A stretch of 64,000 nt of DNA from Psammoneis japonica (GCA_008632985.1 QPGO01000008.1:724979-788978), one strand, 5' to 3'; positions 1,700 through 41,282 are shown, counted from the stretch's first letter. Translations and numbers: made by a program. The notes: generated by a model not told the origin, from the letters alone.

Positions 1700-2962
1700 A
1701 CCTGCAAAACACTGAACCTCAGGAGATTGTCTCAATTTGCTGAGGTGGCCAGATGATCACAAACACCATCAGCTGACTGTCAGCCAATTGCTGTCAACTC
1801 TCTCTCTCAGGTCCTGCAAGTGCCACATGCAACACTGTCAGATGACAACAGCCACACCACTCCTCCATCTTCCATGCCACTCACCCAAAGTGCAAAACAC
1901 AACAGCCACAGGTCTGAACTTGTGAGCATTTGCAAAGTGCAGTGAACAAACACAATTCTGATAAAATGTCCGCACCGCAACAAACCTGTGTCAAGATTCC
2001 TGGTGCACAAGACAATCCCTTCAATGCCAGATTTCGTTTTTGAGACAACAGCACCAGCCTGGCAGGGCTGGAGGGGAGCAGGCATTGCCATTTCTTGATC
2101 TGACACAACTTGATGAGCCACATGCCTGTTGCTGCTTGACAAGATGCCACCACAGGTCAGTTTCATCCCAGAAGATGCAATTGTCTCTTTTTGTGGTAAA
2201 TTCCTTGTGTGTGAGTGGCAGTGGTGCCAAATTGTTGATGACCCTTTGGGGAGTGCTGCAAGACAAGCCATCAAAGCACTCCTCAACACCACAGCAAAGA
2301 GCTGCAAGAGAACTGTTGCAAGGATCCCTTGACAAGCTGTCAGAGGCAGAGCCAGAACATGGGAAAAGAGCTGGCAAAATGCAGCCACTTTTGGAGCCGG
2401 TTGACGAGTGCAACAAACCCTCTCACAAAAACTTCTGAGATAAAATTCATTTGAAAAGGGAATGAAGCACCACAAAAAACCCTCAAATCCAAACTTGTGA
2501 GCTGTTGAGCATTTTTCAGTGGTTGCAAGGAGATCACTCATGATTCCTTCATCAGAACCAGTGGACCACAAAATGCAAACATCTGGGTTGCTGGCATGCC
2601 CAAAGTCAACTGGCGGCTTCAACCTGGGGAAAATTTGTTTGTGCAAAACAGTTTGCTGGCTCAATTGGCCACTGCAAGAATGAGGACATCAATTGTGTGC
2701 TGGAGTCCATTGACAAGAGCTTTCTTTTCATGGGTGATGAGAAATTGCTGGTCCAAATTGTGGTGCAAAACCTGGCCAATCAACTTTGCTTTGCACTCAG
2801 CTCACCTTGCATCATGAGTCATCAACAACATTGTGAACATTCTCCTGTCAATGGAAAATCAACAGGAGTGCTTTGAAGTGACACCAGAGCCCATTTTTGG
2901 GACATCTGACAGCAGTGTGATCAGGACAAGATGTGACACATTGCCAGGAAACTAAGTTTGGG
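1700..2962. mobile_element. Unclassified, highly degenerate transposon relic (left part of the sequence hit by the Gypsy insertion)
   Basis: TpA- and CpG-depleted. Only Tyr-free Cys/His-rich fragmentary ORFs. Lies directly outside the Gypsy 5' LTR. Confidence 0.45.
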
Positions 2963-2966
2963 TCAG

Positions 2967-3466
2967 GTGCAGCATGCAATGCTGACTGCTGGCAGATGCT
3001 GCATCCCCCATGACATCAAATTTTCAAAGTGAAGCCAGAGTCCAGGGGAAGTGCACACTGCAATTGCCCACACAAGCTTGCACTCACTCCAGTGAGTGGG
3101 AGCATTGGCACAATTGATGGTGTCAATTGTGAGTGATCCATGCAGAGAGGTTGTGCAGCAACTGACCATCAATGTGATGCCTTGGATGCATGAAGACTGT
3201 GTGTGTGAGGCATGTGCTGTGCAGTGCTCATCAAGTCCCAAGCTGAAATTGAAGCAATGCTTTTCATTCATGGATGAACACACTCACACATTTGCATGAA
3301 GAAGTGAGTGTGCAGCTTCCAAATGACCAAAGACATTTCTTGGCCAAATGAGCCAACTCAGAAACATTCTCACAGTTCTTGCAGTCAGCTCTGCAACCCA
3401 TCAACCCACACCCAATTTCAACCACCTGCTTGACACATGAGGCACAGTGTGACATTGCTCCAGCAC
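2967..3466 (+). repeat. Gypsy 5' LTR (approximate)
   Basis: Aligns along its length with 14308-14802, e.g. ATGCCTTGGATGCATGAAGACTG in both. Confidence 0.75.
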
Positions 3467-6400
3467 AAGTGTGTGTCAAGAAAATTTCTTGTGAGACAAC
3501 ACATGCCCCCAATGACAACACATGGTTGTTCAGACACAACCAGCCCTGTGATCACAAAAAAGAGGGTTGTTCCTCCTGTTCCCCTGCAGGAGCATCCTCC
3601 AAAGAAAGAGCTGACTAAAGGCAAGCACCAAAGGCACGAGCTGCACAACATGCCCAATCACAAAAACTGAAAACTGTCCAGTGTGCAAGTTGAGCATGCC
3701 ATGCTTCAGAACTGGAATGTGCAAAGAGTGGTTGCTCCATGCCGCCCACAACTCCAAGCAAAGTCATTCTTGGAAAAACATCATGACCAGGCTGGAAAAG
3801 TGCTTGTTGGCTCACATGCTCTCAGAGGGCAATGCTGTCACAATGTTCAACAACAAAGCATTCAAATGCACACTGCTGAAACAAGTGCCAATTGTGCTGA
3901 GTGCATGATGAAGGCAGTCACAGCAAGCATCTTCCCCATGTGATGACGGCGGCACTTCTTCAAAAATGTTGCTCAAGGTGTTTTGTGCAAAAGCCTCCAA
4001 GATGAAGATTCTGCACTGTGTCATGAGTCATGAGGGCAGCTGAGATCAATGGCTGCTCAAAGGATTTCCCTCCTGTTGCAGAAGGCAGGGATGATCTGAC
4101 ATTGTTGCCAGGTGATGAGCTTGTTGATTTGTTTGAGTGTGGAGTTTTCCAAGTGCATGGCAAAAGCACATGGTCCTGCTCCGTAACTTTGATCCACACT
4201 TGCTCTCACACACTTGCAGAGCTCATTTCATTTTGCAAACAGAATGAGCAAGTTGAAGCCACTGAAGGCAGATTTCTAAAGATGGCTTCTTCTTCAAAAA
4301 CCAATGTGCCAAAAAAGAAAGAAGTGGGGCAAAGGCAAGGATGACCCAGAGCTGCTTGTTGTGGGTCACAAGTGCAGCTCAAAATCATGCCCATTGCACA
4401 GCAAGAATTGTGGCCATTCAACAAATGATTGTCAATCTTTGCAGCATCAAGTCAAATGCACAAAGACTTCACATCCATCTGGGGCCAAAAAGAAAAACAA
4501 TCAAGAGGAGCTGAGTGCCATCATCAACCAGGCAGAGCTGAGAGAAAACACACAAAAGCCCAAGCACACCAAGATTCAAGACAAAAAAATCAAATCAATT
4601 CAAGCCACTGTTGCTTTTGAAGATTCTGATGATGAAGACAAAGGGCACCATGTGGTCTGAGAAGGAGGCCAGCACAACACCTCCAAAAGTTTGGCAGTTG
4701 TTTGAACAAATGTCTTGACACTGCACTTCAATTCCCTGGAAGTCATGCTGCAGGCCAACCCAGAAAATGGCAAAAACTCAAACAGCACATTGTGCCAACA
4801 TTGTTTGCTGCCTTGAAAACCAGCTGCACATGACAAAGGCAACAAAAGTTCAAAAAAGAATTGCTTGACAGTGGAGTGAGTGGCATGCCAGTTGATGCTC
4901 GCCACTGTGCAAAACTCCAACAGAGAAGTTCAGCCTCATTGAAAGCTGGAAAACTGTTGCAGGAGCACTCAAGACCAACCAATGTTGTCTTGTTTGCTTG
5001 GGTGAGCTTCCAGAGATGTCTGAGATGGCTGCTGTTGAATCCAAAGTCCATGCGGACAGGGGCAAATTGGGTGTTTGTGCGACACAAAAGTTGGCCAAGA
5101 CACCCTGGAAAATCTGGGCATTGATCTGGCATTTTTTCATCAGACCACATTGAATGGCCTCAAGCAAATGGGGAGATTCCATCACAACACCCAGATGTTG
5201 CATCCAATGACTCTTTTTGTGCAAGGAATCAACACTGTCAAACAGTGACAGTGAGAGAATCTTGGCCACTGAAAGTTTTGGCAACTTCAACAGGAAAAAC
5301 TGCTTTAGACTCTAAAAGAATGTGAGTTGTTGTTTGATGGCACACCGGGCAAGTGGAAAAGTGATCCTTGCCACATCCAGTCAAGTGCCAAACCACACTG
5401 TGCAAGACTGCAAAAAGTGCTGCACTTCTGCAAGCAGGTGCTGAAAGAAGATGAGGTGAAGCACCCTCCATGCAAGATCAGCACATTGAAGAGGGCAAGC
5501 TGCTCAGAGCAGGTGACACCATTGTTTGTTGTCCCAAAAAAGATCAAACAGCGCAGCTTGTCAACAACTTTTGTGAGCCAACAAACAAGAGAACAAAGCA
5601 GATCCCTTGCCCCTCCCACACATTCAGAGCTGCTCTTGAAACTTGAGGGTTTTCAGTGGAAAATGTTGCTTGATCTGAGTGCTGGCTGCCACCACATGAA
5701 GCATGGCACAGCATTTTGAAAGCTTTGCTCCTCAATTTTTCCATGGGAAAAATGTGAAATGCGGCAATGCCTGCCAACACATTTTTCAAGAGAAAATGTC
5801 TGTTTTTTTTTAGGATTTGTCATTTGTGCACATGTGCATGGATGACCTGCCAGTCATCACAAAAACACATTGGATGATGACCATCCCAAGAAGAAGTTGC
5901 GCACTGTGCTCAAGAGTCTAAAGGATGCTGGACTTGGAGTCAATGCCTCAAAGTGGTTGCCATTCTCTCAAGTGCACTCTCAGAGCATCTCTCAGAAATG
6001 AGGTCACTGGTGAAAACATTTCACCCTTGAGGAAAAAGGTTGAGAGGCCACAGAGCACATTGCCAAGCCAAAGACCAAGAAAAACTTTTGTCATTTGTTG
6101 GCATGGTGAACTGCCACTGCCAAGATCCATGGTTGCACACAGATCAGATGTTTCAGCGGCCCTTGCAAGACTTGCAGCAGGCAGGACCTCCAAGCGGGAG
6201 CAAACTTCCATTGAAAAGAAAGCACTCCAAACCATCAATCAAGTGATGTCAAAGGACACACTTCTTGTGCATCTTCATTTTGACAAGCTGTTCAAACTCA
6301 TGCTGATGCATCCAAATGTCAACTTGGAGAGCAGTGACATCTCAAGACAGCAAACCCACTGCACTTGCCTTTGCAGCAGGAAGCTTGACAATCCTCAACC

Positions 6401-6836
6401 AAAATTTTGCACAGCAATGAAACAAGAGTTGCCTGCGGCCATCAAGACTCTGAAAGAGCTCAGCAGGTCTGCTCTCCTTGGTCATTGCATTGTTGCATCT
6501 CTGATGGTCATAAAAACCTTGTGCACAAAGCACTCAACACCAAATGTGTCCATGTCAAAAGCTGCCACAATTTGGTTGCAGACCATTTCAGTGATCTCTC
6601 AACCTTGAACCTGTGTGGTCCAATGATTGCCAAAACATCCAAAGTGTGTGTCCTCTGCATGAGGAGGCCTTCATGAACAAAAGCAAAGGTGATCATGATG
6701 GATCCTGCTGGTTTCAAGAAAATCCAACACAAACAGCAGAAGGATGAGCACCTGTCTCAATGCTGGCATTTTGCACAGCTGCTCCATGCACTCAATTTGT
6801 GAGGGAGAAACATCTGACAGACAGTTGATTTGTTGT

Positions 6837-7081
6837 TGACAGAAAATGAAGATGACTGGGTGGAAGAAAACAATGACTCCTTGCTGCTGTCTAAATGGCA
6901 GATGAGTCTCCATGCAGAGACCGTTGCAGGAGTCAAAAGACTGGTGTCGTGATGTCGACACTGCTGTTGTTGTTCTTGTGAGCCAAGTGGCTCGAAAGCA
7001 AACTGCATCGCGCGATGTGCGCGGAACTAAGAGCACACACAATCATGTGTGACAAACTAAAATCTTGCTCAAATCCTGTCA
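6837..7081 (-). repeat. Copia-1 3' LTR (245 bp)
   Basis: Matches 11507-11755 with 23 substitutions and one 4-bp indel. Confidence 0.95.
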
Positions 7082-8217
7082 CTCCCCAGTTTGCTTGAGG
7101 GGTCAACAATGACAGATTCGAAGTCGGATTGGTTGAAAGCCTCGGGATCGAAGTTCCAAAACATTAGAGGACAAAGGAGGTTCCAGATTTGGCAGCAACC
7201 CCAATGCTTGCTGAGGATGTCAGCCGGGTTGCGGGAGCCTTCGACAAAATGAAACTCAAGGAAACTGGAGGCAATCACCTCACGCACACGATGGAACGAG
7301 AGGGCGGTGTGTCGCTTGTGTAACTTGGAGTGCGGGATGGCAGCACTGTCCACAACCGACTTGTTGTTTTCCAGGAAGATCATCATTCGCAGGCCACAGA
7401 GAGACACTGCTCCGGAACAGACACTGTCAACGGGCATGTCTGTGAGGTGTCCATCGGCAACAAGCCTTGCTTTGTGCCATCCGTCATGTTTGATTCGGAC
7501 GTGATCTCCCCATTCTCCCATTCAAGCATGATGTTGCAGCTTGAGCCTTTCCAAGAGGGATCATGGGGTGGCAATGGTCCTTCGTGCGATGCGGTGCATC
7601 GGAACTTCCAGAGGGTGGTGTCCTCGTCTTCTTGCTCAATGTGGTGCATGATGTCATTGCAGGCCAGGACTTCCTCATGTTTGTCATTGTTGATGGAGCA
7701 AATGAACTTGACCAGTTCAGGATTGTCTCCAATTTTCCAGTCATGGTCCTCAACGACTTTGATGATGCGGGCTCTGTGGCATTGTCCATCCTCTTGTGGC
7801 TTCATGAGGAAGGTGCATCCTGTGATGTCCTCGGGGTCAAAGACCAGCATTTTGGGCATCCTGATTGCCTCCCCATCTGGTGAAGCTGGCAAATCCTTGG
7901 AGTTGTGGTGGGATTTAATGACAGGTTCAGCAGATTTCTTGTCAGGAGGATCAAGATGCAGGTTTGGAGCAGACGGATCACGGGCGGAGTGCACATTGGA
8001 ATGGCAGAGAATCTTCTGAGTGTTGTCAGAAAGAATCTTGAATGTCATTTGGTGACCAACGTGCTTGGCGATGTGCGGGAGGCCGGCTTTAATGTCGATG
8101 GGAATGACGCATCCATCAACAGTGGTGATGCGCTGCAGACCGTTGGGGACCTTGATGGACCGATCGTTGACATTGTGTTTGTGCACCACTTGAGCTGGCC
8201 GCAAGAGTGTGTCATCT

Positions 8218-8548
8218 CAATGGGAATCATTTGGGTCCTGAGAGTCATCACGTAGAAATTGTGCAGGAGAGTCCAAAAAACAATTGTCATCAGTCTGTCC
8301 ATCCGTCCGTGTGCGAATGTCAACTTCTCGGGAAATCAATTGAAATGCCATCTGATTGACGGCATTTTGATTCACATGGTGAAGGCCAATGCCATCAATC
8401 AGATGGCATTTCAATTCAGTTCCCGAAAAGTCATTGGCTCTGATCACTCTCTCGCATGACATTGTGCACATTTCCACATGATTTTGTGTTTTTCCTTGTG
8501 TGAAAGATCAATTGTGACCCACGCGACATTTTCGAATGATTCCTGTTG
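8218..8548. mobile_element. MITE-like insertion in Copia-1 pol, with an internal long hairpin
   Basis: Interrupts the ILHQ-A-TGKG / THSCGQL motif. 16-bp terminal inverted repeats (CAATGGGAATCATTTG vs CAACAGGAATCATTCG). 43-bp inverted arms at 8324-8366 and 8388-8430. TSD not resolved. Confidence 0.65.
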
Positions 8549-10133
8549 CCCCTTTCCAGTGCAGGCTCACTGGTGAAGGATGGCAATGGCAGGGCCGCGT
8601 TGTGTGTGGATGACACCACCGGCAGTGACAATGGGAATGTCTGCTGGTTGATGATCATTGACACCTTGGACGTCAACGTCATTGGGCTTTGCGTCGGAGC
8701 GGACGGAAGGTGCAGATCCGGGCGGTTTCTCACCAGAACGGGCAGAAGGAGGCTGTTCAGGTGCCAGGAGATGTTGCAAGTCGCCGGGTGGCAGGGGCTT
8801 GTGCCTGGTGAGATGAGCCAGAATGGGGTCAGCATCGGCTGCATCAGCTGCAGCGTCGGATTGTGCGAAGGCTGATGCAAGATCGCAAGTGTTGGCGGAC
8901 AAGTTGACACTGCATCACTGCCAATGTGGAGGTTGTGCAGGTTGACCACCGTCAAGTCATGGCAGTTGCCGGTGTGGGCGGTGTGCGAGCCAAGAATGGC
9001 AGCCTTGGTGGACTGGGGCAAGGTGTCCCAAATGCGCTGATGGTCCGGCGGGATGCGACGCCATTGTTCCTTGGTGAGGGAATTGCCACGAGTTTGTGCA
9101 GCACAAGCTTGGATGATGTCAACATCACTGTCGATGTCAAAGAACACATCGTCATCAGGGTCGTCGGGGACTGGGTCGTGTTCACAGATGGCACGGCACG
9201 GAGCGCGAGGAGCCATCTTGGGGGCGAACGTGCTGTCGTGCTGTGCTGCAGCAGAAAGCAGGAGTCCACAGTGCTCTTCGTAAGAGAGCCCCTTTCCATT
9301 CTGCGTGCAGAACTGATCGGCCTGATTCTTCATGGAACGGAGTTCTTCGATGGGATGAATGGCATTCTCAAGCATGACACATTTCTGGCCAGCAGAGAAA
9401 TGGTCCGCACCCGGGACAAGAGCTTCGTGCTTGCGAAGCTGGTCCTGCCAGTGAAGTGTGAAGGCATGAGTGGATCCTTTTCAGGTGCCACTGCCAAGGC
9501 GAGCAGTGGTGAGGTACGTGAGAAGGGTTGAGGACTCCAGGGATGCGTGAGTGGAAGTGAGGGTGCACTTGGAGAGGTCACAACAGACCACTTGAGCATC
9601 AGAGGAGCCAACATGTTGATGAACAAGTGCCTTGCCTTTGTCATTCTGCAAGATCCGTTCAAACACTGCGAACATGCACTTCTGTTGTTCATCAAACAGG
9701 GCCTTGTCCTCAGCTGCAGAGGGCTTGTACGTCGGGTTGAGAGTGCATGCGATGTCTTGGGAGTGGGCCTGTGCGATGACGGAGGTGTGCCATGTGTGCC
9801 ACTGTTTGTCGGACTTGAGGAGCGCGAAGGCAAGTGGGTCACGTTTGATGCCTCGTTTAAAGTCACACACAGGATCATGTGGTTTGGGTGGCAACAAGCC
9901 AGGAGTGGGAGCAGATGGTGCTGCACCCATGGAGAAGGACGCCACACACTCAGGACTGAGATGACAGTTGGTGAACTCCTCTTGTGTGAACAATTGAGGG
10001 TCATTGCCAACATCCGCGCCGCCGTGCGCTTTTGCCGCATGCAGGCTAATCAACGCAGCCATCTGTGCTTTGTGACCATGTGGCAAAGGCATTTGATTGG
10101 TGCCGTCATTGTGTGCAAGGGCATCCAATTGCA

Positions 10134-10532
10134 GACACGTTCCAGCTCTAGGTGGGACCTCGCACTGCTGCACTGTGACATCAATGGTTTTTTGGATCGC
10201 GTCGCATGTCGCACACGTGCATTTCTGTGTGTCACATTCTACGAAATTGTTTCACATTTTCCCTGTTTTGCGAAGCCAAAGGCTTTCTATTTTCAACAGT
10301 TGTGAGAATGAAAATGCATTGGGTGCATTCTTTAATGTCTGTAGAATGCACCTGGGCAAACTGTCATTGATGCACTCCAAGCATGAAGGAGGAGACACGT
10401 TCGTAAAATTGCCTCTTTTTCTGTTGGCGATCATTCACATTTTCATTGCAGTGTGAAATTACTGCAGAGCTCACACGCAGAATTCTGCGGGCCCAATGTC
10501 ACACGGAGTCCCACCTGGGGCTGGAACCTGTC
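10134..10532. mobile_element. MITE inserted in Copia-1 gag
   Basis: 25-bp TIRs (GACACGTTCCAGCTCTAGGTGGGAC vs GACAGGTTCCAGCCCCAGGTGGGAC) flanked by TGCA on both sides. Removing 403 bp puts gag ORFs 10499-10681 and 9481-10173 in one frame. Confidence 0.85.
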
Positions 10533-10744
10533 TGCATCGGAGCAAAAGTGAAAAGGTCCTGATGCAAATCGGTTCCATCAATGTTGAGGGCGGAGCGCAA
10601 TGGACTGTCTGCGGCTTGATTCAGAACAGTGCCTGGAATGTGCTCGAGGCCATCAATTTGCTGTTGCCTGGTGAGAGCCATGTTGCAACTGGGTGGATGT
10701 CGGAACTGGCAAGAATCAAAGTGTGGGCTTGAAATGACTTGAAA

Positions 10745-10787
10745 CTTGACTTGAATCTTGACTTGAATCTTGACTTGATGTCTTGAA
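10745..10787. repeat. Short tandem repeat (CTTGACTTGAAT x~3.5) in the Copia-1 leader
   Basis: Seen directly; 12-bp period. Confidence 0.8.
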
Positions 10788-11506
10788 CCATCTCAAGAGT
10801 CAGAAGCCGCCGGGCTGTGATGTCCCGTTCGCAGTTAAGTGCCAAGCTTCCCATCCAGTCTGCAGAGTTGTGCCGGCATGTCCGAACTCACAGCTGGCGA
10901 TGCTTTGGGTTGCTTGAGAGCAGAGTGACGGGTTAAAAACCCCTGCTGACAAGCCATCCAGAGGTGGACAAGACCTCCGAACCGTTCTTGTTTTATGTTG
11001 GTTGGACAACCTGATCAGGCCGGCCAAATTTGGCGCTGTGGATGGACGAACAAACGTGGGAAATGCACCCTCGCCCCAATGCAGGCTGCAATCACAAACT
11101 GCTTCCTCTCACAGTTGTCCTCGTGGACCTTGTGGGACTGTAGAAGACCAGCAATCTGGTGCAGATGCAAGGCGGTAGACTTGGCGTGCGTGGAGCAGAG
11201 CCAGACTCAGGGGTTTGTGTCGTGTGCACGTGGACGCAAGCGGATGGATTGGCAGGATCCACTGTGAGGAATCCAGAATCTCGGATGTCTGAGAATTTGG
11301 GAATTCCTGGCCAAACAAACATCCGTTGAACAAACACATCCAACGATGGGAGGCATTGGATAAATCCAAACATGTAGATTTAATCCAGCACCCAGCAGTG
11401 AAGAAGGCAGATGTGTGCTTCCACCACCAATGGTGCACGTTGTCGAAAAATTTCTCGATGACGATGATGAACGCTCAATGGATGATGAAGAGCAAGGCTG
11501 TCAATC

Positions 11507-11755
11507 TGACAGAAAATGAAGATGACTGGGTGGAAGAAAACAACAACTCCTTGCTGCTGTCTGAATGGCAGATGAGTCTCCGTGCAGAGACTGTTGCAGG
11601 AGCTGAAAGACTGGTGTCGTGACGTCGGCACTGCTGTTGTTGTTCTTGTGAGCTGAGTGGCTCAAAAGCAAACTACATCGCGCGCACGACGTGCGTGGAA
11701 CTGAGGGCACACACAATTGTGTGTGATGAACTAAAATCTTGTTCAAATCCTGTCA
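11507..11755 (-). repeat. Copia-1 5' LTR (249 bp)
   Basis: Matches 6837-7081. Flanked by the TSD GTTGT. Confidence 0.95.
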
Positions 11756-14802: not shown

Positions 14803-14806
14803 TCAG

Positions 14807-16375: not shown

Positions 16376-16644
16376 GTTAAAACGCACATCCAGTACTGTA
16401 TGTACGGTAACATAACAGCAGTTAGACTGACCTGACTGTCTGGAGAGATCTGGCTTGCGCGTATAATTCTTAATATATGTATATTTTTTATATAATACTC
16501 GGAGGTGGCGTTTATTATGTGTAATTAAAACACGAATAAATTAAAAATGCGACCGGCCAACTTGCTTTGTACCTCGCTCATTTTTTTTCACCGCTCTTTA
16601 TTTTCTCACAATCTCACAACTCACAAATCTTTCACCAAATTAAC

Positions 16645-30000: not shown

Positions 30001-33000
30001 ACGGTGAATGGAAACAAGACTTCTTCACAGTGGATTGTTTCTTAAAATCCAAAGACCAAGGAACCTGCAAGCATGTTGTGAAACATTGCATGCAAAAAGC
30101 TCAAGACATCATCATCCATGGTCAGCTTGACAATGTCAAGTGTTTTGCCCATCCTTCAATCTTCCCAGAATTGAGTGAGACACTTGATGCAGCAATGTTG
30201 GAACTCAAAACTGCTGACCTCAAGCTTGGAAAAGAATTCAATGCAGTGGTGGGACACACAATTGATGCCCACAAAGAGAACCCAGAGCATGCCATGAAGA
30301 AACAACACAAGCTCATCCCCTGAGTGTGCCAAGATGTTCCCTTCAAGACACACCTTGAGGACAAGGCACCAGCCGCCCCAATCTCTTGAGGCTGACACCA
30401 AACGTGCACTTTGGCATCAACGTCTTGGCCATCCCAGTGATCACCACTTGCATGACACCCACAAACATGTCAAGGGTGTTCCCAAGCTTGCTCATGGTGA
30501 ATCTCCTTTGGACACTTGTCCTGCTTGCATTTGTGTGAAACAGAGACAAAGAGCCCTGCTGGCCCCAACTCCACACACACCGTGACCCAGGCCTGTCAAG
30601 GACCAACAGTGGATTTTGCTTTCTCCAGTGTCAAATTGAAGAATGAAGAATGTGCAATGGATTGTGCCAGCCTCAATGGAGAAACTTGTTGGATTCTCAT
30701 TTACAACCACCACACCCGTCATCTCCAATGTGCCTTGATTGAACATGACATCTTCTCCCCTCCTCCTCTCCCACCAAAAAAGAAGAGCATGTCCTGGAAC
30801 CAACCATGGCAGATGCATGAGCTGTTGCTGAGCTGTGTTTCCCTCACATTGATTTCTCTGTGCTTGACAATGTGGAATCTGAATTCCTCCTGACAATTGA
30901 CCATGCAACACACGGCACTTTCAACAGTTTTGTGATCTTGTCTCATGCCATCACACTGGAAGAGCAACCTCTGAACAGTTTTCCTTGCAACTGCCTCAAG
31001 AAACTGCCTGCATGGGACAAGTGGCATGCAGTGAATTCAAATGCTCAATCATTTTCATGCCATGGGCATGTTTGGTGCACCAATCAAGTGACCAAATGAT
31101 TCAATTGCACTCTGTCCCAATTGGCAGTGCAATGTCAAGATGGATGGCACTCTGTGTTCTTGCTGTTGCTGTGGTGGTTCCTCATGTGCTGCTCCTGCTT
31201 TGCACTGTCTTCAGTCTGCCCATTCCTCCTGCATGGAACAACTGATGCAACATGTGTTTTTTGCACCATCAGCTTTGATGGGATGCCGAGTGCACTCTGG
31301 TGATGTGCAGGATGCTTGTGCCCACTCACCTCATCCTTCAACACCAGTGTTTGTTCAGATTGATGAGGCTTGTGCCACATGGCAATTGCTTTGGTGTTGA
31401 CTTGGGAAGGTCTGTGGTGCTGCTGATCCTCCATGCCTTGCAACAAGGACACCCAGAATCTGGTGCACATTGGGAGAATCACATCAACAAGATTCTTGCA
31501 GATGCCAAACCATTGTTTCACAACACTGCCCATCACAAGTGCATCCATGCCTCCATGTTTGAAGGCAAGCAGATCCTCCTCCTCCATCAGGTTGATGATT
31601 TTCTGACAGCATGTGAAGAGGAATTGCACACCATCAAGATTTTGATGCCATTGGTGAAGTCCTCTGCCTCTGGGCAAAGACTTGATCTCTTTCAAGTGCC
31701 TTGGCCCATGCAATGAGTTCAATGGTGTGGACATCCACCAACATGATAACTCACATCAATTGCATGCTGTGCATGTCTTGATCAGGTCCTCACATCACAT
31801 GGTTGGCTTGTCCCCGCTGCTGATGAATTGGACACTGATTGTCATGCTGCTTCCCTCCCAGTTGAGTGTGTTTCGAAACTGTGCTCCGATGTTGGACCTG
31901 TAAATGCACTCCCAAACATGAGGAACTTGCTGAACTCCATGGTTTTGGCTGTCAAAACCTGCTTGGTGAGTTGTCAGGTGCCTGCGTGATTTGTCATCCT
32001 GACATTGGTCATGCCATCACTGCCCTGTCAATGCCCTGAAAGGCCTTGCGAAGTGTCTTCATCACAACAAGCATTGGGGTGTCAACTGCAAGACACCAAC
32101 CAAGGACACCACACAGCTGTTGCACTCTTTTGAATGATTGGAGTTGGACCCCACCCTTCTGGAGTTCCCTGTTGCAGATTCACCTGCTCAGTCACTTGGT
32201 TTCTTGGATGCAGCACATGGCAATGACCTCTGCAACTGTCGCTCCACTGTTGGTGGCTGTGAGTGCATGCTTGCTGGTGCCACCATTTTGCATCAGCGCA
32301 AGATGCAGATGGTTGCTGCAATGAGCTCTGCTCAGGTGGAGTTCCATGCAGCTGGCACTGCTGCCAATCATGCCCTGTGCCTCTGCTCAGTCCTTTGGGA
32401 ACTTGGTTTGCCCAGGATGGCCCCACCCTTTGTGTGTTGACAATGAGCCAGCCATCAAGATCATCAATGACCAGATCCCTGCAATGCATTCCCACCATGT
32501 TGATGTTCAGTGGTTCACAATTCAAGACTAAAATGAAGCCAGGCATGTTGTCACTTGACACACTCCTGGCACTGTCAACGTGACCTTGCCAAGGCTCTTG
32601 GATCCATGCTGCATGCACGCCATGCCATCGGATGATGGGACACTGTCAATGACACTCTGTTCTGCTCAACTGTGTCTTCTCTAGAGCTGCCCTGGGTTCC
32701 TTTTCTATCTGTTCTCTTTTTGAGTCATCTGGTTTGACCTGTGTTCCTTTGATTGTTGATTGTTTCCTGTCACACCCTCCTGTTTTTTCTGTCTTTGACC
32801 CACCACATTGGCTTCGGAGTTGACATGCTGCTGGATCAGGGGAGGGCATCAGCAGACTGACTGCTGTCCATGGTTAGACTGTGTGTGGATGACAGATGGA
32901 CTCTTTAGATGGACAAGCAGCACAGATCTCTTTGAGATCTGCTTCTCTCACTCTTTCTCACCAGCGCACGTGTCATCTGCTGTCACTGCTGGTTTGCAGG

Positions 33001-33044
33001 GAGCTCTTCAGCTTGTCACTCTCACCATCGGCATTCTTCTGTCA
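27028..33044 (+). mobile_element. Ty1/Copia (CoDi-like) LTR retrotransposon, degenerate
   Basis: LTRs 27028-27217 and 32847-33044. PPT AGGGGAGGG 32838-32846. TSD ACAGT/ACAGC. GAG-pre-integrase LWHQRLGHPS, RT ALQQGHPESG...QVDDF, RNase H FLDAAHGNDL...SS-VEFHAA. Confidence 0.92.
29695..29887 (+). repeat. 96-bp tandem duplication inside Copia-2
   Basis: TTTTGGACC...CATTGCC unit at 29695 and 29791. Confidence 0.9.
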
Positions 33045-33812
33045 ACAGCACCAACAGAGACCAAAGCTGACCCTTGTGCACAGCTCTGTGGCTCCAACAG
33101 AGACCAACACAGAAAATTGTGTGGTGGTTGGGCCTCTCCCCATCTCCTGCGGTGGTCAGCCAGCTGGTTCCCATGAGTCTTGTGATGGGTTCTTGGCCAG
33201 GAGACACAGAACAAGCAATGAGCAGCTCACAACTGCACCAAGCTCATTCTTGATTGTGAGCATTCTTTCATTGGCCTCACACATGAGCAATTGCCTTGTC
33301 ATCAAATTGGAGGATCTTGGTGCATTTGAGGCCACATTTTCGTCAAACACCACAAAGAGAAAAAAATGAGCACATGATGGTTCATGCAAGTGGTGGGTGC
33401 ATCGTTGTGCAGCAGGAATCTGCAACAAGACAAAGAGCAAGCATCCTTGACATGGGCACTGCATAATGACTCGAGCACTTCTTGGGTGCTTGGCTCATTG
33501 CAAGTCTTCCTTGGAGCGGCGCTCTCGAGCTGTGCCGTGAGTGACTACATCAGCATCGGTGTGACCGCTGATCTCATCATCGCAGGCAAATTTTCAAAAA
33601 TGCGTAGAACCCCACTGTACACTACACGGCGGATTCCTGATTCCAGTTTCACACCATGCAACAACAAGCAGTCTCAATGAGGCAACTCTCTCTAGCTAGC
33701 TAGAGGGTAATCACTACTAAAACGTTCAGAAACCAGAAGCACCCCCTAACCGAATAGACACTGCAGTCAGTTTTCAGTTTTACAAGAACAAATCAGAGGC
33801 ATCGCAGCAAGA

Positions 33813-35256
33813 ATGAATGAACACGAACGATTATGTGAGCTTCTTGCCAGAAGGGCCCCACGACTTCAAGACCTCTTGACATCAGAGGCTGAGAACATTG
33901 CAAACTGCGGCGATACCCTGTCTCACCTTATAGCAGAGAGTCTCCCCAATGTTTATGAAAATGACGACATTGCGCAGCTTTTACGAGATGAGCGTACTCT
34001 GCGCTTGTTTGTGGAAAAGGTTTCCGAAGCGACCATGAAACTCGGTATGCTCGGACAACAGCTTGGCTCTGCGGAAAATCGAACAGTCTGGTTGTCGCCG
34101 AATTGCATGGCCTGTAACACACCGTACGACAATGGTGGGTGCCAACACCCGGGGCAACCCACAGTAAGACGTATTGGTCTCGGTGATCCGTATGGTTGTG
34201 ACATTCTTCATCAGGCCGTCAAACTGTTGGCAGCTCTGGGACACTTGCTTGGGCACAACGATTGCCAAGAACTTGTCCGATTTGTGGTTCCCGAGCCTCC
34301 GGTAGGCACTAGTCCTGTGGCTTTTTGCCAGGCTGAAATGATGTCTGGCAGACAAGGTATTCTTTGTGTCATTCAGCTGTTTGCACTATTGGATAACGGC
34401 TCTAACGGATTCCCTAAAGCTGTCATGTACGCTTCTGGCTGTCTCTCTCTGGCCGTTTCTCGATGCCCTTCCAAAGCATTTGCCTTGATGGATCCGGAGC
34501 CCTTTTGTGAAGCCGTGTGCCGCTACCTTTCCAAAATTTTTGGTCTCATCAATAATAACCACTTGTATCGTGGAGGAAACCTTTGGTAGAGTCGCGCTCA
34601 CCAACATTTTGCCGCTCATGTATTGGATGGCGGACTGGCAGCAGTCACATATTCATATCCGTCAACGGCAGATTGCCGTTGCTTTGGTATCATCTGCCTT
34701 GAATGTGCTTCATAGCATTCATGCCGGGGAAGACGATGACCGCATTGATGTTCCGCCCAGCTATCACCAACTTCCAGAGCTACGGCCCGCCGTGAATTTC
34801 ATGTCGAGTATAATTGATCAAGACGGGAACAATCATCCCATGTCGTGGGTGGTAGCGGCCACGTTTGAAGTCTTGGGACGATGGTCCTTTCGGGGTATTC
34901 CCATTGGGACTGAAATGATGCCGACTACTGACACGGGTCATGATCCTGTGTCGTCTTGTATCGAGGAATACCTTCCTCGGCTCAGCGCACTCTCGCCGAC
35001 GGCCCGTCGTCTCGCCGAGCCAATCATGATAGCGCTGGCGTCGAATCAAACCCCGGCCTTGCCCCAACCAAGCATTTCCTTTCTTCGAAAGCCTCTGGAG
35101 AAAACGATTCTTCATTGTGCTCATTGTGGAAGTACCGAAAGAGTTTTTGCCTGTGGCGGTGGCTGCAAAGGACTCGCGCATTATTGCTCCCAGGACCACC
35201 AGCGCCGGCACTGGAAGATTCACAAGCATTTTTGCAAGGGGCAGAAATGGAATTAG
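33813..35256 (+). CDS. MYND zinc-finger protein with a reading-frame break at ~34510-34590
   Basis: Two overlapping ORFs. C-terminal CAHC...ACGGGC...YCSQDHQRRHWKIHKHFC. Confidence 0.7.
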
Positions 35257-36704
35257 ATCATGCATAGGGGGTGAGGGCGGCAAGGGGGCGACATGCTGTC
35301 ACTCAAACAGAATTGTATCTTTCATAGTTCCACGGTTTCTCCTGTCTTGATGACATCAACATCTAGTTGGCCATCTTAGAAAAGCTCTTTCTTTGGTGCT
35401 CAGTTCTTCGTCGTTCAGCTCGTTTTCCGTTTGAATGCGAACGCACTGCAAGACTCCAGGGTGTGCTGCACACTTTGTACTTGAGCACAAGCACTGCATA
35501 TCACTGTGTGACAGCTTGCACTCCAGCGACATGGCACCTTTTTTGTTTACATGTGGTTGTGTCAACAACTGGCAATGTGAGCAAACACCAACAAGAGGCA
35601 AGCAGTGCCACACTGCTGCTTGTCTCTCACAGACAGGTTTTTGGGTCCAGATGGACCGTTCTTTGCCACTGAAATCATTGTGCTTTAACCAGTTGAACTG
35701 TGGCCCAAATGCACAAATGGCCACAAACAGCAGCAGTTGACCAACAAAGAACTCCAACAGCTCTCTGTGAAGGAAACATCTGGAGCAGCAACAATCTCTG
35801 CAGAGAGCACACTGGCATCCATTCTCACCCTTGCTGTTCAGCCACAGTCCAGAGAGAAAACAGAAAGCACTCTTGAAACTGGCAAGGGAGCAGCCTGGAG
35901 CAAAGGCATGCAACATGGGACAAAGCATGCAAGAACCCAACCTGGCTTCATGCAACAAGTGTGGAAAATGTGAGGGCCAACAATGCCAGTTTGAAGAAAG
36001 ACAAGACCACCACAGCTTGTTTGGCAAGTTTGCCACACCATTTCACATTTGACACACTGTGCCAGCACATCTCTGCCCATCCATGACAATGCATGATGGA
36101 AAAAACAGAAAAAGAAAATGTCAATGAGCTTCTTTCTCTTGGCTGGAGCAGTTTGCACTTCTAAAAAATTAGAAAGTTGCAAAACAGCAACCCTCACTCT
36201 CTCAGCATTCATGGCAATTGCAAAGGCAGTGACCAGTGCAACAGGAAGATGTTGACTTTGGTGCTTCAGTGTTTGTGTGCTCTTTTCTTTTTTGCAATTG
36301 TCTTGCCCAAGCTGGGGGGAACCACAAGCCAAGCTCCGTGCTGCTTCAGCTCTTTTTGAAGGAGAAGAGTTGGGGCTGGTTGCCATTTCAACCTCTGATG
36401 CATCAGCAGCAGCACTGACCACACACCCATCTTTTGAATTCACAGGCAAAGTGGCCATGCTCCAAACACAGACTTGCAGCTGTGTCCGGAAACTGGCTGA
36501 GCAATTTGACATGCTCAGATTGTGCATGTTCAGGAGCAAAGCTTCCACACTCAACAGCAAAGCTTGCAGAGGAGGCACTGCAAATGTCTCATGCCTGAAG
36601 CACTGCACAACACCGCAAAAGTTTTTGCACACTTGACAGGGGGGCAAGAAATCATGCACACACATCTTTTCTGCTGGCCAAGCATTTGTGTGGATGCCGG
36701 CTCT

Positions 36705-36830
36705 CTCTCCCTGGGGAGACAATTTTGTGAAAGAGTCGTTGTTCCAGGGCCCATTGCAGCCAGAGCCTCTCCCTGGGGAGACAATTTTGTGAAAGAGTCA
36801 TTGTTCCAGGGCCCATTGCAGCCAGAGCCT
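36705..36830 (+). repeat. 62-bp tandem duplication
   Basis: Two copies differing by one CG/CA change. Confidence 0.9.
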
Positions 36831-39800
36831 GGGACAAATTTTTGCTGTGATCCTGTCACAAAATGCACAATTTTTATTTTACAACAAGTTTGCAGCACCA
36901 CGATCTCACACAGAAGCCTTGCTGGCATGTAAAAAAAACTCACCACAAAATTGTGCCAACAGAGAAAAAGCAGGCACCCACAACAGCAAATCAATGCTTG
37001 ACAAAAGCTCCCTCATTTGGTGTGCATTCCCATCTGTCAAGTGGGCAGCTGCTCAACAGGAGTTCACAGGTTTTTAAAAAGTGATGGGCCAATGGTTCTT
37101 TTCTTTAGTGGGCACACAGCACAACTTGACAGAGCTGCACATGGCATGCAGTGGAATCAGATGCAAACAGCCAAATCCAAAACCTCAAAATCTTGCCTTC
37201 TCTTGTCAGCAGCATTCTGGATTGTTGCATCAAAGAACAGTGTGCACAACTTTTTGCATGTGCCCAACCCTGCAGCACTGCAGAAGATGGGCCTGATGCC
37301 ACCAGAGAGATGTCACTGGAATCTGTTCAGGTGGAGCCAAAAACACCCCAATTTTAAAAATGACTTTGGTCAGAAGCAGCATTGGCAGCAAAACACATTG
37401 CTGTCTCTGCAGATGCTGATTGAGTGAACAAGAATGCAGCATGGGGCCCAGGAGTTGTGTGCAGCACACACTGCATTGTCCCCCCCCCCCCCCCTGCACC
37501 ACACAGCACACATGACTCTCTCTGCTCTGAAGCACTGGTGAAAACATTGATGTTCTTGTGCAGCTTTGCACTTAAAAGAAACTGGCAAAAATGAGTGTGA
37601 AAACCCTTGGTGCTTGGTTTGCTCTGGAGGACAGCAGGGCAGTCATTCAATGGACCATGATTGCCAGTGCATGCCAAGCTTGGGTGCTTCTTGGTGGCTT
37701 CATTGGACAACCTTGATGTTGAAAATGTTGCCATGCACAAATGATGCAAGATGCAACATTTGTCATTGGGTGGGACATCAAGATGTCCAAGCAAGTTCAT
37801 CACACAGGCTTGTGGAAAAGTGTCATTGTGGGGTGAGACTGTGCATCATCTGGGAGATGATGAACCAGAGGAGAGTCAGCTGGAGACTGGTTGGACTCCA
37901 GAGGGGAGCCAAGCATCATCACAGCACTGACCTCTGCATGCGCCATTTTGTTGCATCATTCTCTGGGATGGCAAGGGCTTTAGATCCATTGAGAAGAGAG
38001 GTCTGCAGCAATGGGGCTGTTGGACTGACTCAAAAAATGAGGGAAGTGTTTGCGCTTGCAGCGACAGTCTGACAAATGGCGCTCTGGATGTGTGACATGG
38101 GTTGCAAACTTCAAGTGCTTCTTGATGAACACAGTCATCTCCCTTTTGTTGTCTGATGAAGACTTGCACCAAAGATGTGGGCATGCACCACCAGCTGCAA
38201 AAACACCTTGAATTGATTGCAGCAACCCGCAAGAGAAAGGTCACCTTGACATGGGTGGCACTCAACACAACCAGCAGCCTTGTCACAGAAGGCAGAGTGC
38301 ACTTGAAAAGGGATTTTTTTCAAGGCTCTGCAGCCATCTGCACAGCATGAAGCACAAAGGTGGTGAAGCTTTCAGTTCTTGGAGAACATGACTGTGTGGG
38401 AGACAAGAGCTTGGAGATGGCATGAGCAGTGGTGCTGATGCAAAGCACACAAGTGTGCTGGGGAAAATCATCAGCAGACAAGTTGCCAATGGCAAATCTC
38501 CAATTTCCATCCATGGTTTTGCTTGAAATGCCACAAAGGATGGATGTGATGTCCACATGCCAAAGACTGATGTTGACAACTCTGATGCCATTGACAGATG
38601 CCATGCAAAGAGTCGTCATGTGACAGATGCTCAGTTCATGAATCAGAGGTTTGTGATCTGGGGTAGACTGCATCACAAGCAACAAGCCATCTGCCAGAAT
38701 GAGACAATCAGAGATGTTGTCAAGATGCCACAGATCACCACCTTCACAATGTGACAAGGAGCTCTTGGAGTGAAAACCTTGCAAGCAACCTTGTCGGCAA
38801 AGTGCTCCTCACAAACATCCTCAGAGGTGTGGGGAGCCCAGATTGAAGAGATGTTTGAACAACAAAGTTGCAGTGGGGGTCTTGGAGAGCAAAGAGCTGC
38901 CAGATGGAGGTGTCTTTGAGGCAGCACAGAGTTGTTGTTCAGTGCATCAACAAGATCCTTCATGTCAACAATGGCAGATGTGCAGCAGGAGTTGCTGGTG
39001 GAGCTTTGCAAGCATTCTTGGGTGGATGAGGGGTTGCAGAAAACTTGTTCCAATTGCAGTGTGATTGCTGCATGTTGGGGTCAAATTGAACATGCAAGAT
39101 GTTGACTATGATGACGACCTTTGTTTGACATGCCTGCAGAGTGAGTTTGATCTTAGAACCCAACATCTGTTGTCAAGGCAGGTGGGGTGGGCTGTCATTT
39201 GGCATTGGAGCTTGGACCTTGAAGAGAGCATGCTGCACAAAAGTCATGCAATGTTGGCAGAGTCTGACAAATCATTTGGTGTGCGATGGACTCCTTTGTG
39301 ATGGGCTTGCAAAGAAGTTGTGAAACATTGTCCTTGCTTTGGGTGTGTTTGTGGTCATCAAAAAATGGCTGCAAGTCAAAAGTCTTGCCAAAGCAAACAA
39401 CATTGACATGCACCCAAAGGCCTCCAGCTGAATTTTGCATGCACAGCAAACTGCTGGGCATCTAAAACAACAAGGGTGTCATGACATCTTTTCCTGTCTT
39501 GGATGGTGCCATGGTTGAGGTGCATGAAATTTTTGGTCATGAACAGCATGCAGAAGTGTGCATCATGGTTCTGTGGGGCCTGCGCGCCAATGAAAACACT
39601 TCCAGGATAAAAATGCAACAGGCTTGTTCCACTCTCAAACCAACAAATGCATCAAGGCACAAGTTGGTGCACAGAAGACATGCATTGCAACAAGGCCACA
39701 ACCTGACAGAGTGGCAACATTGGCAAGAACAACAAGCACATGGGACCTCCATGCAAGCTGGTGACAGTGATGACATGTGCACTGGCAAGAAAGAGTGAGA

Positions 39801-40834
39801 AGCAGACCTCAGACAGATCTGCTTGTCTGCCCAATCTAGATGCCTGACCATCATCCACACACTGTCTTGACATGTGAAGCAGGAGAGCAGGTCAACTGAC
39901 AGCTCCCTCATTTGTTGCATGTGTTTCTCTCTGTTGAGTGGGGAGCTGCTCAAAAGGAGCACTGCAAGTTTTAAGGGTGATGACAAGGTGCTGCTGGTGC
40001 TGAACTTTCTTCTTTGGCAGGTGCACAGTGCAACTCAATGGCTGTGAAGCATGTGGTGGCATCAGATGTGAGCAGCTGAGTCCAAAACCTCAGAATTTTG
40101 CCTTCTCTTGTCACCAGCATTCTGGAGGTGACAACCATGCCAAAGAAGAGTGTTTGCAACTTTTCATGTGTCTGACCCACCAACTGCCTCATGCTCTGAG
40201 TGGGTGGTTGAGTTCAGGCAGGTTGACAGACTGCAGCTGGTGATCGCAGTTGTGAGAACACATTTCTGAGTCACAGCTCATTTGGCTGGGAAATGTTTGG
40301 TCTTGTGAAAGCTGTGGCACCACTGTGCACTTCATGCAGCTGAATGAGTGTGTTCATCCATGAACAAAAAATGCCACTCCAAAGCACACTGCACTCAGTC
40401 TTCATGTGTCTCACAGTGCAGCAAGATGTTGATGGCCAGTCACTGCACAACATCTCTTTGTTGATCAACTGCAGTTGACACACTTGGCAACTCTGCCAGT
40501 GCCTCTGCTTGCTAAATTGAGTGAGTGTGAGCTCACATGGACATGCACAATGTGCACTTCTGCAACTCTGGCTTCATCTCTGACAAAGTTTGAGAAGTTC
40601 ATCATGGGATGATGCAGCTGGTGGTGTCTGCCAGCAGGCAGTGTCGCGTGTTCTTGCTGCACCACAGCTGCACAGCACCATGCACTAAAGACAACAGGTT
40701 GCTGCTGGAGAAGCTGCTGGAATCTGCTCAGGTGGAACAAGACACAGATTTTAAATGACACTGGTCAGAACAAGCAGGCAGCGGCAGCAGCAAAACAAGC
40801 TGCTGCCCCACCCTTTGCACACACAGCACTGATT

Positions 40835-40932
40835 GAGTGCCCCCATCAAGAAAATGGCATGGGGCCCTGGAGTTGTGTCGCTGAGAGCCCCCAACAAGAA
40901 AACAGCATGGGGCCTTGGAGTTGTGTGCCCAG
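40835..40932 (+). repeat. 48-bp diverged tandem duplication
   Basis: GCATGGGGCC(C/T)TGGAGTTGTGT repeated at 48-bp spacing. Confidence 0.8.
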
Positions 40933-41282
40933 AGTGATTTTCCACCCACAAAGCTCTCTGCATGGGGGCACTTGTTGTTGCGAACAAATTGCTGATGCTC
41001 GGACCCTGTCGGCAGTTCTTCTTGTGGCACTTGTTGTGTTGTGAAAAATTGCTGCTGGTGCTCTGACCCTGCCCATGGTTGTGGATTGAAAAGACACTCA
41101 GGAGTGACCAAGCTTGTCACAGGCAGCTGCTGGAAAGAGCAGTGCAATTTGATTTGATGTGATCAGAATCCCAAAGAATCGAGGGATTTTGGGATGTCTG
41201 CGATTGCTGCTTCAATCCTCCCCTGCTGCCCACCCGTGTGGCCGGCACCCACTGCACCCACCTCTGCCAGTGGCTCTTTAGG

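Follow-up and report, generated by a model that had tools for sequence, protein, structure and literature searches.

What has removed almost every TA dinucleotide from long stretches of diatom DNA, when the host genes lying between those stretches keep theirs? The question is raised by a single 64,000-nt strand of Psammoneis japonica (QPGO01000008.1:724979-788978), which is analysed here at its full length as the window, with all coordinates counted from its start, and in which three blocks of transposon-bearing DNA are nearly free of TA and poor in CG. In the reading preferred here, to which we would give a probability of roughly 60%, the blocks are diatom long terminal repeat (LTR) retrotransposons that were hit after their insertion by a local mutator turning TpA into TpG or CpA, with CpG decay going on alongside. 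The observation itself is confirmed and the core interpretation is supported; hypermutation of this kind has, very recently, already been described, as TpA>TpG/CpA change of viral insertions in the alga Bigelowiella natans (Mettrop et al., bioRxiv 2026, 10.64898/2026.01.13.699255), and the remark in the original prediction on this DNA, a note made from its sequence alone, that its author knew of no described pathway for this is now overtaken, since the accessible part of that preprint gives the same signature.

The ratios of observed to expected counts (o/e) of TA and CG were profiled in 1-kb windows, and the borders of the blocks were set from 100-bp bins. TA o/e falls to 0.01-0.17 over 2-16, 27-33 and 36-41 kb, against 0.40-0.79 in the windows that lie wholly outside the blocks, and the borders are sharp in 100-bp bins (~1700, 16300, 26200, 33500, 35500 and 41200), within 100-200 bp of those drawn by eye in the original prediction. 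The blocks and the two stretches of host DNA that serve as internal controls are as follows.

1700-16300: block 1, a TA/CG-depleted nest of LTR elements; by sub-part, TA o/e 0.03-0.10 and CG o/e 0.08-0.63
26200-33500: block 2, TA/CG-depleted; 21 TA (o/e 0.04) and 67 CG (0.15)
35500-41200: block 3, a TA/CG-depleted nest of LTR fragments; 22 TA (o/e 0.06) and 28 CG (0.08)
16301-26199: internal control, host genes assigned by Pfam (DUF389, PAC3, SIR2+zf-UBP, DUF6937/6938); TA o/e 0.45-0.71, CG 0.77-1.11
33501-35499: internal control, a 2-kb gene island with a MYND finger (PF01753) between blocks 2 and 3; TA and CG kept

Dinucleotide counts were pooled for the three blocks (27,603 bp) and for the remaining window (36,397 bp). 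The blocks contain 97 TA (o/e 0.05), 374 CG (0.23), 3116 TG (1.88) and 3183 CA (1.78), and the rest of the window 1453 TA (0.59), 2087 CG (1.00), 2621 TG (1.17) and 2563 CA (1.12); at the o/e of the rest, 1064 TA and 1642 CG would be expected in the blocks, and the Poisson probability of 97 or fewer TA prints as 0. The descriptive part of the original prediction is borne out by these counts: three nearly TA-free blocks, "about 20" TA in block 2 (21 by count), abundant TG and CA, and TA retained in the DNA outside; it had also found open reading frames (ORFs) almost devoid of tyrosine and rich in Cys and His, and six-frame translations indeed contain 0.07% Tyr in the blocks vs 2.24% elsewhere, with Cys (6.3% vs 3.5%) and His (5.4% vs 3.3%) raised. 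Within the window, confinement to mobile DNA is seen in the contrast of TA o/e between blocks and surroundings and in the sparing of the 2-kb gene island. The deficits of 967 TA and 1268 CG add up to ~2234, and the excess of TG plus CA comes to 2365; since the excess matches the combined deficit, TA and CG appear to have been turned into TG and CA. G+C content is unchanged (48.8% in the blocks vs 47.9% in the rest). Other dinucleotides shift in the older blocks, where GC o/e is 1.13-1.32 vs 1.03 and AT o/e 0.80-0.94 vs 0.95; this would fit gains from TAC>TGC and GTA>GCA and losses of TAT/ATA.

The direction of the change can be read where a transposon protein is still recognisable, which is the case in block 2, in a degenerate element called element C here.

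27028-33044, + strand: element C, a degenerate Ty1/copia LTR retrotransposon with LTRs at 27028-27217 and 32847-33044 and flanks ACAGT and ACAGC
30394-30582, + strand: GAG-pre-integrase remnant of element C (PF13976, E 1.2e-7, 31.8 bits vs a cut-off of 28.4; recovered in a second ORF search)
31402-31713, + strand: reverse-transcriptase (RT) fragment of element C, used as search query, with 281 homologues at E<=0.001

Judged by its sequence features, namely the LTR pair, the flanks, the PF13976 match and the RT homologues, element C is a Ty1/copia element. The relatives of the RT fragment carry PF07727, and the named ones come from Nitzschia inconspicua, Cylindrotheca closterium and Fragilaria crotonensis; PF07727 itself gave no score on the mutated window sequence. 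The RT fragment had no Pfam match at E<=10 and no homologue in a word-indexed search; homologues came from HMMER against representatives and from an alignment profile. Element C has ..IH..LLLHQVDD.. where the family consensus has ..IY..LLLRQVDD.. at the corresponding place. When 123 homologues with normal Tyr content were aligned by tblastn, matches fell only at 30039-32654 on the + strand, and 290 codons were retained at which at least 5 proteins agree at 60% or more. Tyrosine was kept at none of 18 expected positions (9 are now TGY, coding Cys, 4 CAY, coding His, and 5 something else; Fisher p 8e-10) and arginine at 3 of 18 (6 His, 4 Cys, 3 Gln; Fisher p 6e-6), compared with 181 of 254 for the other residues. 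For expected codons that begin with A, the A was lost in 13 of 13 cases after a T (9 are now G), and was kept in 18 of 18 after a C and in 9 of 12 after a purine; as the loss of A depends on a preceding T across the codon boundary, the effect ignores the reading frame. The direction shown by these alignments is from TA to TG or CA, and from CG to TG or CA.

Comparison of the window with itself yielded four LTR-like direct-repeat pairs, belonging to element C and to the following elements of blocks 1 and 3.

2967-3447, + strand: 5' LTR of element A, the outer element (partner 14308-14786)
14308-14786, + strand: 3' LTR of element A (partner 2967-3447)
6837-11755, + strand: element B, younger, nested in A, of a very high-copy family; LTRs 6837-7081 and 11506-11755
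12674-14007: high-copy repeat within element A; it contains direct repeats (13051-13167 and 13388-13504) that are 100% identical in purine/pyrimidine code
37094-37261 and 40003-40171: LTR-like pair of block 3
40185-40580, - strand: piece of block 3 resembling the LTR of element A
39703-39862, - strand: piece of block 3 resembling the LTR of element C

Element B ends in TGACAG...CTGTCA and is framed by a perfect 5-bp target-site duplication, GTTGT, at 6832-6836 and 11756-11760; no Pfam domain was found in it. When blocks 2 and 3 were translated through their stops (written as X) in six frames each, Pfam recognised 0 families in the 12 frames; the 25 ORFs within the blocks that reach 150 aa yielded only a below-cut-off match to WHIM1, taken as chance, and of 154 further ORFs reaching 75 aa, 150 were searched (all but 4 short ones in block 2) and yielded only PF13976. 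Because protein domains are lacking in blocks 1 and 3, the elements there are called from LTR pairs, target-site duplication and copy number alone. Tandem duplications occur inside elements at 29695-29888 (~97 nt twice, 92%) and 36704-36830 (62 nt twice, 98%), with copies that differ by transitions, and 8321-8433 matches its own reverse complement at 90% in purine/pyrimidine code, which may be a palindrome masked by transitions.

The LTR pairs date the change relative to insertion. Over the four pairs, 184 transitions and 39 transversions separate the LTRs; 112 of the 184 transitions belong to 56 dinucleotides at which CA in one LTR faces TG in its partner, next to 189 concordant TG/TG or CA/CA sites, and ~50 discordant sites would be expected if ~40% of TG/CA sites are derived (an estimate from o/e), independently in each LTR and on random strands. 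Identity within pairs is 69-89% and rises to 91-98% when only purine vs pyrimidine is scored; pair A, with 29 CA/TG sites, 91 transitions and 21 transversions, goes from 70.7% to 91.3%, and the LTR-like pair of block 3 has 12 discordant CA/TG sites. In pair B all 24 substitutions are transitions, and its sites fall into 5 CA/TG, 3 TA/TG, 4 CG/TG, 2 CA/CG, 6 CG/CG and 1 TA/TA; since the CG classes predict that fewer than 1 of the 5 CA/TG sites comes from CG, most of them derive from TA. Both LTRs of an element are identical at integration and are discordant now, so that the changes arose on integrated DNA. Heritable action in place on the chromosome is supported by the 56 discordant sites, which are footprints and include no de novo events.

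An explanation by which the copies would have arrived already mutated, through A-to-I editing of sense and antisense transposon RNA by ADAR- or ADAT-like enzymes and subsequent copying into DNA by reverse transcription, is made extremely unlikely by the same observations. The elements are retrotransposons, and RNA editors prefer a U before the edited A (10.64898/2026.01.13.699255, Discussion, in its accessible part), which agrees with such a route; the two LTRs of one element share a template, however, and still differ at 56 CA/TG sites, with TA/TG intermediates in pair B, so that RNA editing fixed by reverse transcription is excluded as the main source. The outcome is also strand-symmetric and free of one-strand runs (TG 52 vs CA 53 in symmetric contexts), and the targets reported for B. 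natans are DNA viruses with de novo mutations in clonal lines, again according to the accessible part of the preprint (10.64898/2026.01.13.699255).

Relatives of element C outside this genome were sought by scanning metagenome contigs with an 8-row copia RT alignment, which gave 80 loci of related copia elements. TA o/e in these loci lies between 0.22 and 0.84 (median 0.64), and 66 of the 80 stand at 0.55 or above; with ordinary TA in related loci, the copia family is not TA-poor by nature. Many of these loci form one family at 82-86% identity, and copies were polarised against the majority state of the others (60 of the 80 loci, with at least 800 usable positions; 20 were dropped). The most affected copy (L052) lost 106 of 130 majority-TA sites (64 to TG, 42 to CA) and 28 of 120 CG sites, with 2 reverse changes; other strongly affected copies lost 44 of 60 (L076), 49 of 70 (L062) and 19 of 29 (L063). 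Overall, a few metagenome copies have 63-82% of the family-majority TA sites turned into TG/CA, and most copies have lost 5-20%; a copy with overall divergence like that of L052 (L011) lost only 22 of 128. The same hypermutation strikes some copies and spares others in environmental, probably diatom, DNA. Two of the outcomes that the original prediction had named as refuting it are family copies that are equally TA-poor and a polarised spectrum without an excess of TA>TG/CA; both checks came out in favour of hypermutation, the first through the median o/e of 0.64 over 80 loci, the second through a strong TA>TG/CA excess in the protein as well as the metagenome comparisons.

Tyrosine-poor RT matches amounted to 8 of 150 and 5 of 100 in two listings, and the 6 that were looked up are on ENA or JGI metagenome contigs. 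Eight copia RT fragments (P0122, P0135, P0170, P0184, P0237, P0311, P0323 and P0362) have 0 Tyr and an excess of His and Cys, the first five sitting on short ENA or JGI metagenome contigs; these eight are likely further hypermutated environmental copies. Among 7 proteins of named diatoms (Nitzschia inconspicua, Cylindrotheca closterium, Fragilaria crotonensis), no Tyr-free copy was found (Tyr 3.2-6.3%).

Other copies within the P. japonica genome were followed through two sequencing runs, X1 and X2. Contigs of X1, from the same sample, were placed on 1-20000 of the window at 80% likeness or more (12,016 contigs); they also contain 98% of the words sampled from 26-34 kb. Unique DNA has a depth of ~60; over those TA-free parts of block 1 that are low in copy number, contigs at this single-copy depth show 0 differences from the window. 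High depth spans 6671-12006 and 12674-14007; the summed contig depth reaches 7,000-90,000 over element B and the repeat at 12674-14007, and 27,000-38,000 over the repeat alone, so both belong to extremely abundant families. X1 contigs differ from the window at 942 variant places (816 transitions vs 126 transversions). At 13189-13376, among 9 variant places listed, other copies have TA at 7 where the window has TG or CA, and CG at 2 where it has CA. A 226-nt contig of X2 at 13159-13384 (depth 162) shows 10 differences from the window, including TA where the window has TG/CA. Another X2 contig spans 1-815 and 907-1341 unbroken and omits 91 nt (817-907, with a GT start, an AG end and 1-nt ambiguity); as it skips a GT...AG stretch, X2 looks like a set of contigs made from RNA, and if it is one, some copy of the repeat at 12674-14007 that has kept its TA is expressed in the genome. 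X2 contigs gave no cover over most of block 1.

These copies also bear on the explanation that dispenses with a mutational process, by which the signature would reflect an intrinsic composition of, or selection in, the families concerned, or else an artefact of assembly, polishing or sequencing. The original prediction had asked whether raw reads carry TA at the depleted sites; the X1 contigs agree with the assembly, and to that extent the answer is in its favour, though X1 was the sole read set found and is possibly the one from which the assembly was built, which gives the artefact its one foothold. Otherwise the evidence reduces this explanation to a near-negligible chance: contigs at single-copy depth match the window with 0 differences, conserved Tyr became Cys or His and conserved Arg became His, Cys or Gln, relatives have normal TA, LTRs of the same element are discordant, other genomic copies carry TA, and independent metagenome assemblies show the same polarised loss.

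Sequence context defines the activity further (R, purine; Y, pyrimidine; N, any base). In six hypermutated metagenome copies, A>G rates are 46% for TAC, 38% for TAT, 24% for TAA and 23% for TAG, with 1-10% in non-TA contexts. The 97 TA that survive in the blocks comprise 60 YTAR, 24 RTAR, 11 YTAY and 2 RTAY, compared with 256, 382, 385 and 430, respectively, in the rest of the window (1.3x as much DNA). Both data sets indicate that T-A-Y is favoured and that Y-TA-R resists. A two-rate model fits in which the A of each strand is hit ~4x faster when a pyrimidine follows; as this model predicts, the gain of YTGY+RCAR in the window is ~2x that of YCAY+RTGR, and YTAY sites in the metagenome copies gave 65 TG vs 25 CA. 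The even split in symmetric contexts given above has its counterpart in the absence of any same-strand excess, that is, of strand-coordinated runs, in 8 of 8 copies, and of any sense-strand bias in the metagenome copies.

Error-prone repair of the polymerase-eta type (A>G at WA, where W is A or T), or another replication or repair bias of heterochromatin that acts without a dedicated editor, would share with these data that the process is region-specific, transition-only and strand-symmetric, and polymerase eta was among the candidates of the original prediction. It fits poorly, and we consider this whole class very unlikely: AA is not depleted (o/e 1.16 in the blocks vs 1.14 outside), A>G in AAN contexts of the metagenome copies is 3-6% vs 23-46% in TAN, and the near-total loss of RTAY points to an activity that reads its site.

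The TpA process is independent of CpG decay. In element B, TA o/e is 0.10 while CG o/e is 0.63, so that TA loss outruns CG loss, and the hypermutated metagenome copies have lost CG at much the same rate as control copies (88 of 773 and 208 of 2079, respectively). CpG decay accounts for the CG>TG/CA half of the signature, with its deficit of 1268, its replacement of Arg by His, Cys or Gln and its CG/TG and CA/CG intermediates in LTR pair B; it cannot remove TA (deficit 967), TA loss is faster in element B, and the metagenome copies lost TA without extra loss of CG. As it explains the CG deficit and not the TA deficit, CpG decay is a co-occurring process and not the explanation. The central claim of the original prediction, a second process separate from CpG decay that converts TpA to TpG/CpA on both strands and is confined to the transposon blocks within the window, is upheld. 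A single dual A/C deaminase responsible for both losses was considered and rejected as the main model, the two losses being uncoupled in element B and in the metagenome copies.

The edges of the blocks show how far the process extends. Depletion continues 0.5-1.5 kb past the recognisable LTR elements, and at the left edge of block 2 (26200-26500) 0 TA are left in 300 bp and 11 CG remain, the TA-free zone reaching ~300 bp beyond the CG-poor zone; here the TA process is either faster or further-reaching than CpG decay. The TA-free stretches outside LTR elements (1700-2966, 14787-16300, 26200-27027 and 33045-33500) are without a repeat partner in the window and have single-copy depth where measured; they could be older transposon debris, or neighbouring DNA reached by spill-over of the mutator. 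Much of the depleted DNA has single-copy depth when contigs are matched at 80% likeness or more, with element B at high copy number; old copies may have diverged past this threshold. The qualifier "repeat-restricted" in the original prediction goes beyond these data, given the single-copy depleted DNA, the depletion past the elements and, by the accessible part of the preprint, the single-copy main target in B. natans. On the same three grounds we infer that targeting follows chromatin state or foreignness and not repetition as such. The process may serve as a genome defence.

What a mechanism has to account for, as demonstrated by comparison of sequences, is the signature and its direction, the post-integration timing, the strand symmetry, the extended motif, the independence from CpG decay and the presence in some environmental copies. 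In the reading preferred here, LTR retrotransposons would integrate and a locally targeted mutator would then act in place on their DNA, converting TpA to TpG or CpA (an A:T>G:C transition) on either strand equally and site by site until TA is nearly gone; it would prefer 5'-T-A-Y-3' and largely spare Y-TA-R. A separate and slower CpG decay (CG>TG/CA, as from deamination of 5-methylcytosine in methylated diatom transposons) would run in the same DNA, and the two together would ruin the coding capacity of the elements. The mutator may be an adenine deaminase of the TadA/ADAT2 type that works on DNA (A>I, read as G) and is directed to silenced or foreign chromatin, an identification by analogy that we hold at somewhat less than even odds. 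The strict 5' T and the order TAC > TAT > TAA, TAG seem to resemble the context of TadA's natural substrate, U33-A34-C35.

The original prediction had assigned the change to the A of TpA; TA is its own complement, so the A cannot be separated from the T, and every result given above fits an attack on the T equally well. In that case a 5-methylpyrimidine dioxygenase of the TET/JBP type would oxidise thymine in silenced DNA to 5-hydroxymethyluracil (5hmU) or 5-formyluracil, which pairs with G and gives T>C, with a motif of 5'-R-T-A-3'; 5-formyluracil can mispair with G. Both processes in the blocks would then hit the 5' pyrimidine of a self-complementary YpR step (the C of CpG and the T of TpA). 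So strict a dependence on the 5' neighbour, however, is what one would sooner expect of a nucleic-acid deaminase, and we know of no thymine modification in diatoms. In dinoflagellates, 5hmU is made by a dedicated enzyme and tied to transposon silencing (PMC11572971, accessible part), though the base-resolution 5hmU map of Breviolum minutum is reported without a sequence motif (PMC11071213, accessible part). On balance an attack on the T is unlikely, and the adenine deaminase is retained as the working candidate for the enzyme.

Several points weigh against this reading as a whole or against the enzyme proposed. No effector gene lies in the 64-kb window, and the enzyme is one that we purely infer; the attacked base, A or T, is indistinguishable from sequence, because an A>G change in one strand reads as T>C in its complement. 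A deaminase of single-stranded DNA might leave strand-coordinated runs or a transcription-strand bias, neither of which is seen, and eukaryotic ADAT2/3 substrates have G, A or C after A34, with which T-A-Y is no clean match. RTAR sites in the metagenome copies are without the CA bias predicted by the two-rate model (CA 10 vs TG 9, a small sample). Blocks 1 and 3 contain no recognisable transposon protein in the Pfam searches and the ORFs of the blocks, and the stretches from the LTR elements out to the block borders may be transposon debris or flanking DNA. In the protein alignment, positions 31950 and 31951, which supply 2 of the 18 Tyr columns, stem from matches that overlap and lie in different frames. 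The reads that inform on other copies in the genome are those of X1, possibly the source of the assembly, and are not independent confirmation; 40 of the 942 variant places were listed, so that the spectrum of the high-copy family of element B is not polarisable, and at the listed places of element B most of the differences that set the window apart from nearly all copies are not at TA. For the metagenome loci, the majority state is a proxy for the ancestor only.

The closest known counterpart is B. natans. In the accessible part of the preprint (10.64898/2026.01.13.699255), mutation-accumulation lines are reported to have acquired 231 de novo mutations within two viral insertions; A>G or T>C changes make up 230 of these and invariably hit TpA, at a rate of ~6e-7 per site per generation; genome-wide, there are 124 clusters poor in TpA and rich in CpA+TpG, and RT and DDE domains are enriched among TpA-depleted coding sequences. 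Hypermutation of this type would be episodic, restricted to some lineages or copies and ~1000-fold above background, which the unequal TA loss of similarly diverged metagenome copies (L052 and L011) would fit; in B. natans the main target is single-copy, and the authors propose an ADAT2-like deaminase, on grounds other than the motif. Shared with the P. japonica blocks are the A:T>G:C change confined to TpA and yielding TpG/CpA, its localisation to foreign or mobile DNA next to host DNA with normal TA, and the same TpA-poor, CpA+TpG-rich footprint. The differences, as far as that text goes, begin with the host, a chlorarachniophyte (rhizarian) there and a diatom (stramenopile) here, and with the target, viral insertions there and, in P. 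japonica, LTR retrotransposons that include a member of a family with hundreds of copies. They extend to the degree of depletion (o/e 0.45 in an insert of a nucleocytoplasmic large DNA virus, near saturation at 0.05 in P. japonica) and to the strong CpG decay that coexists in the diatom; the main text of the preprint is without mention of CpG, diatoms or flanking context, and the T-A-Y preference and Y-TA-R resistance are resolved here. De novo events are available for B. natans, and footprints only for P. japonica. No report of TpA loss in diatom transposons was found in the literature searched, where most subscription journals were lacking.

Other systems resemble the blocks in part. Repeat-induced point mutation (RIP) of ascomycete fungi depends on duplication and on a premeiotic stage. 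It, too, consists of transitions alone, hits both strands of integrated repeats or transposons within sharp limits and ruins ORFs; its direction is CpA->TpA (C>T), which makes sequences AT- and TA-rich and creates stops, whereas in the diatom blocks TA is destroyed, G+C is unchanged and TAA/TAG stops vanish. A-to-I editors (TadA and ADAT2-3, ADAR, the ADAT-based mRNA editing of fungi and TadA-derived base editors) have in common with the present case an A>G change, T as the best 5' neighbour and, for the best context here, TAC. They have a strong preference for U or T 5' of the edited A, the natural loop of TadA is U-A-C-G, and TadA-derived adenine base editors act on DNA; the natural enzymes act on RNA, in contrast to the change of chromosomal DNA after integration seen here. 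APOBEC3 and AID are a further example of host editing that inactivates retroelements by clustered transitions; they change C to U (G>A) in TC, CC or WRC contexts, in single-stranded cDNA before integration and in strand-coordinated runs, whereas the blocks show A:T>G:C at TpA, after integration and without strand runs.

New in this analysis are a second and distant host lineage, retrotransposon targets driven to saturation, the post-integration timing, the extended motif and the occurrence of the signature in some environmental copies. Going by the accessible text, TpA hypermutation of invading DNA had so far been known from one preprint on one rhizarian alga; the diatom and the environmental copies move it towards a possibly widespread algal defence, and TpA-editing DNA defence may be widespread in marine algae. 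Rather doubtfully, one can go further and suggest that diatoms and chlorarachniophytes share an ancient chromatin-guided DNA editor, most likely an adenine deaminase derived from TadA/ADAT2, that reads T-A-Y and removes TpA from the silenced DNA of mobile elements and viruses, whatever their copy number or cytosine methylation. Such an "A-RIP" defence would extend across the stramenopiles, alveolates and rhizarians, would operate in natural populations and could shape the base composition of algal genomes rich in transposons. The enzyme might be reached through deaminase and dioxygenase genes that are common to B. natans and signature-positive diatoms and absent from signature-negative relatives, and any candidate must accommodate the T-A-Y motif, a strand-symmetric outcome, the absence of processive runs and the uncoupling from CpG decay. 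A natural TpA-specific A>G activity on DNA would be of interest to base-editing research. In practice, hypermutated copies escape similarity searches, and purine/pyrimidine scoring restores an LTR identity of 91-98%; dates of diatom elements taken from LTR divergence will be badly inflated.

Several host genes of the window deserve brief mention. The first gene, which has a DUF5692 match, contains a short canonical intron at 817-907. A sirtuin fused to a zf-UBP finger (22177-24024, + strand) and a DUF6937/DUF6938 protein (24097-25812, - strand) both have normal TA and CG and no evident link to hypermutation. Towards the far end of the window lies a gene whose matches identify the window as diatom DNA.

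58682-60811: glutaminyl-tRNA synthetase, with best matches at 79-80% identity and the best named match, from Seminavis robusta, at 76%; the named matches seen are all from diatoms

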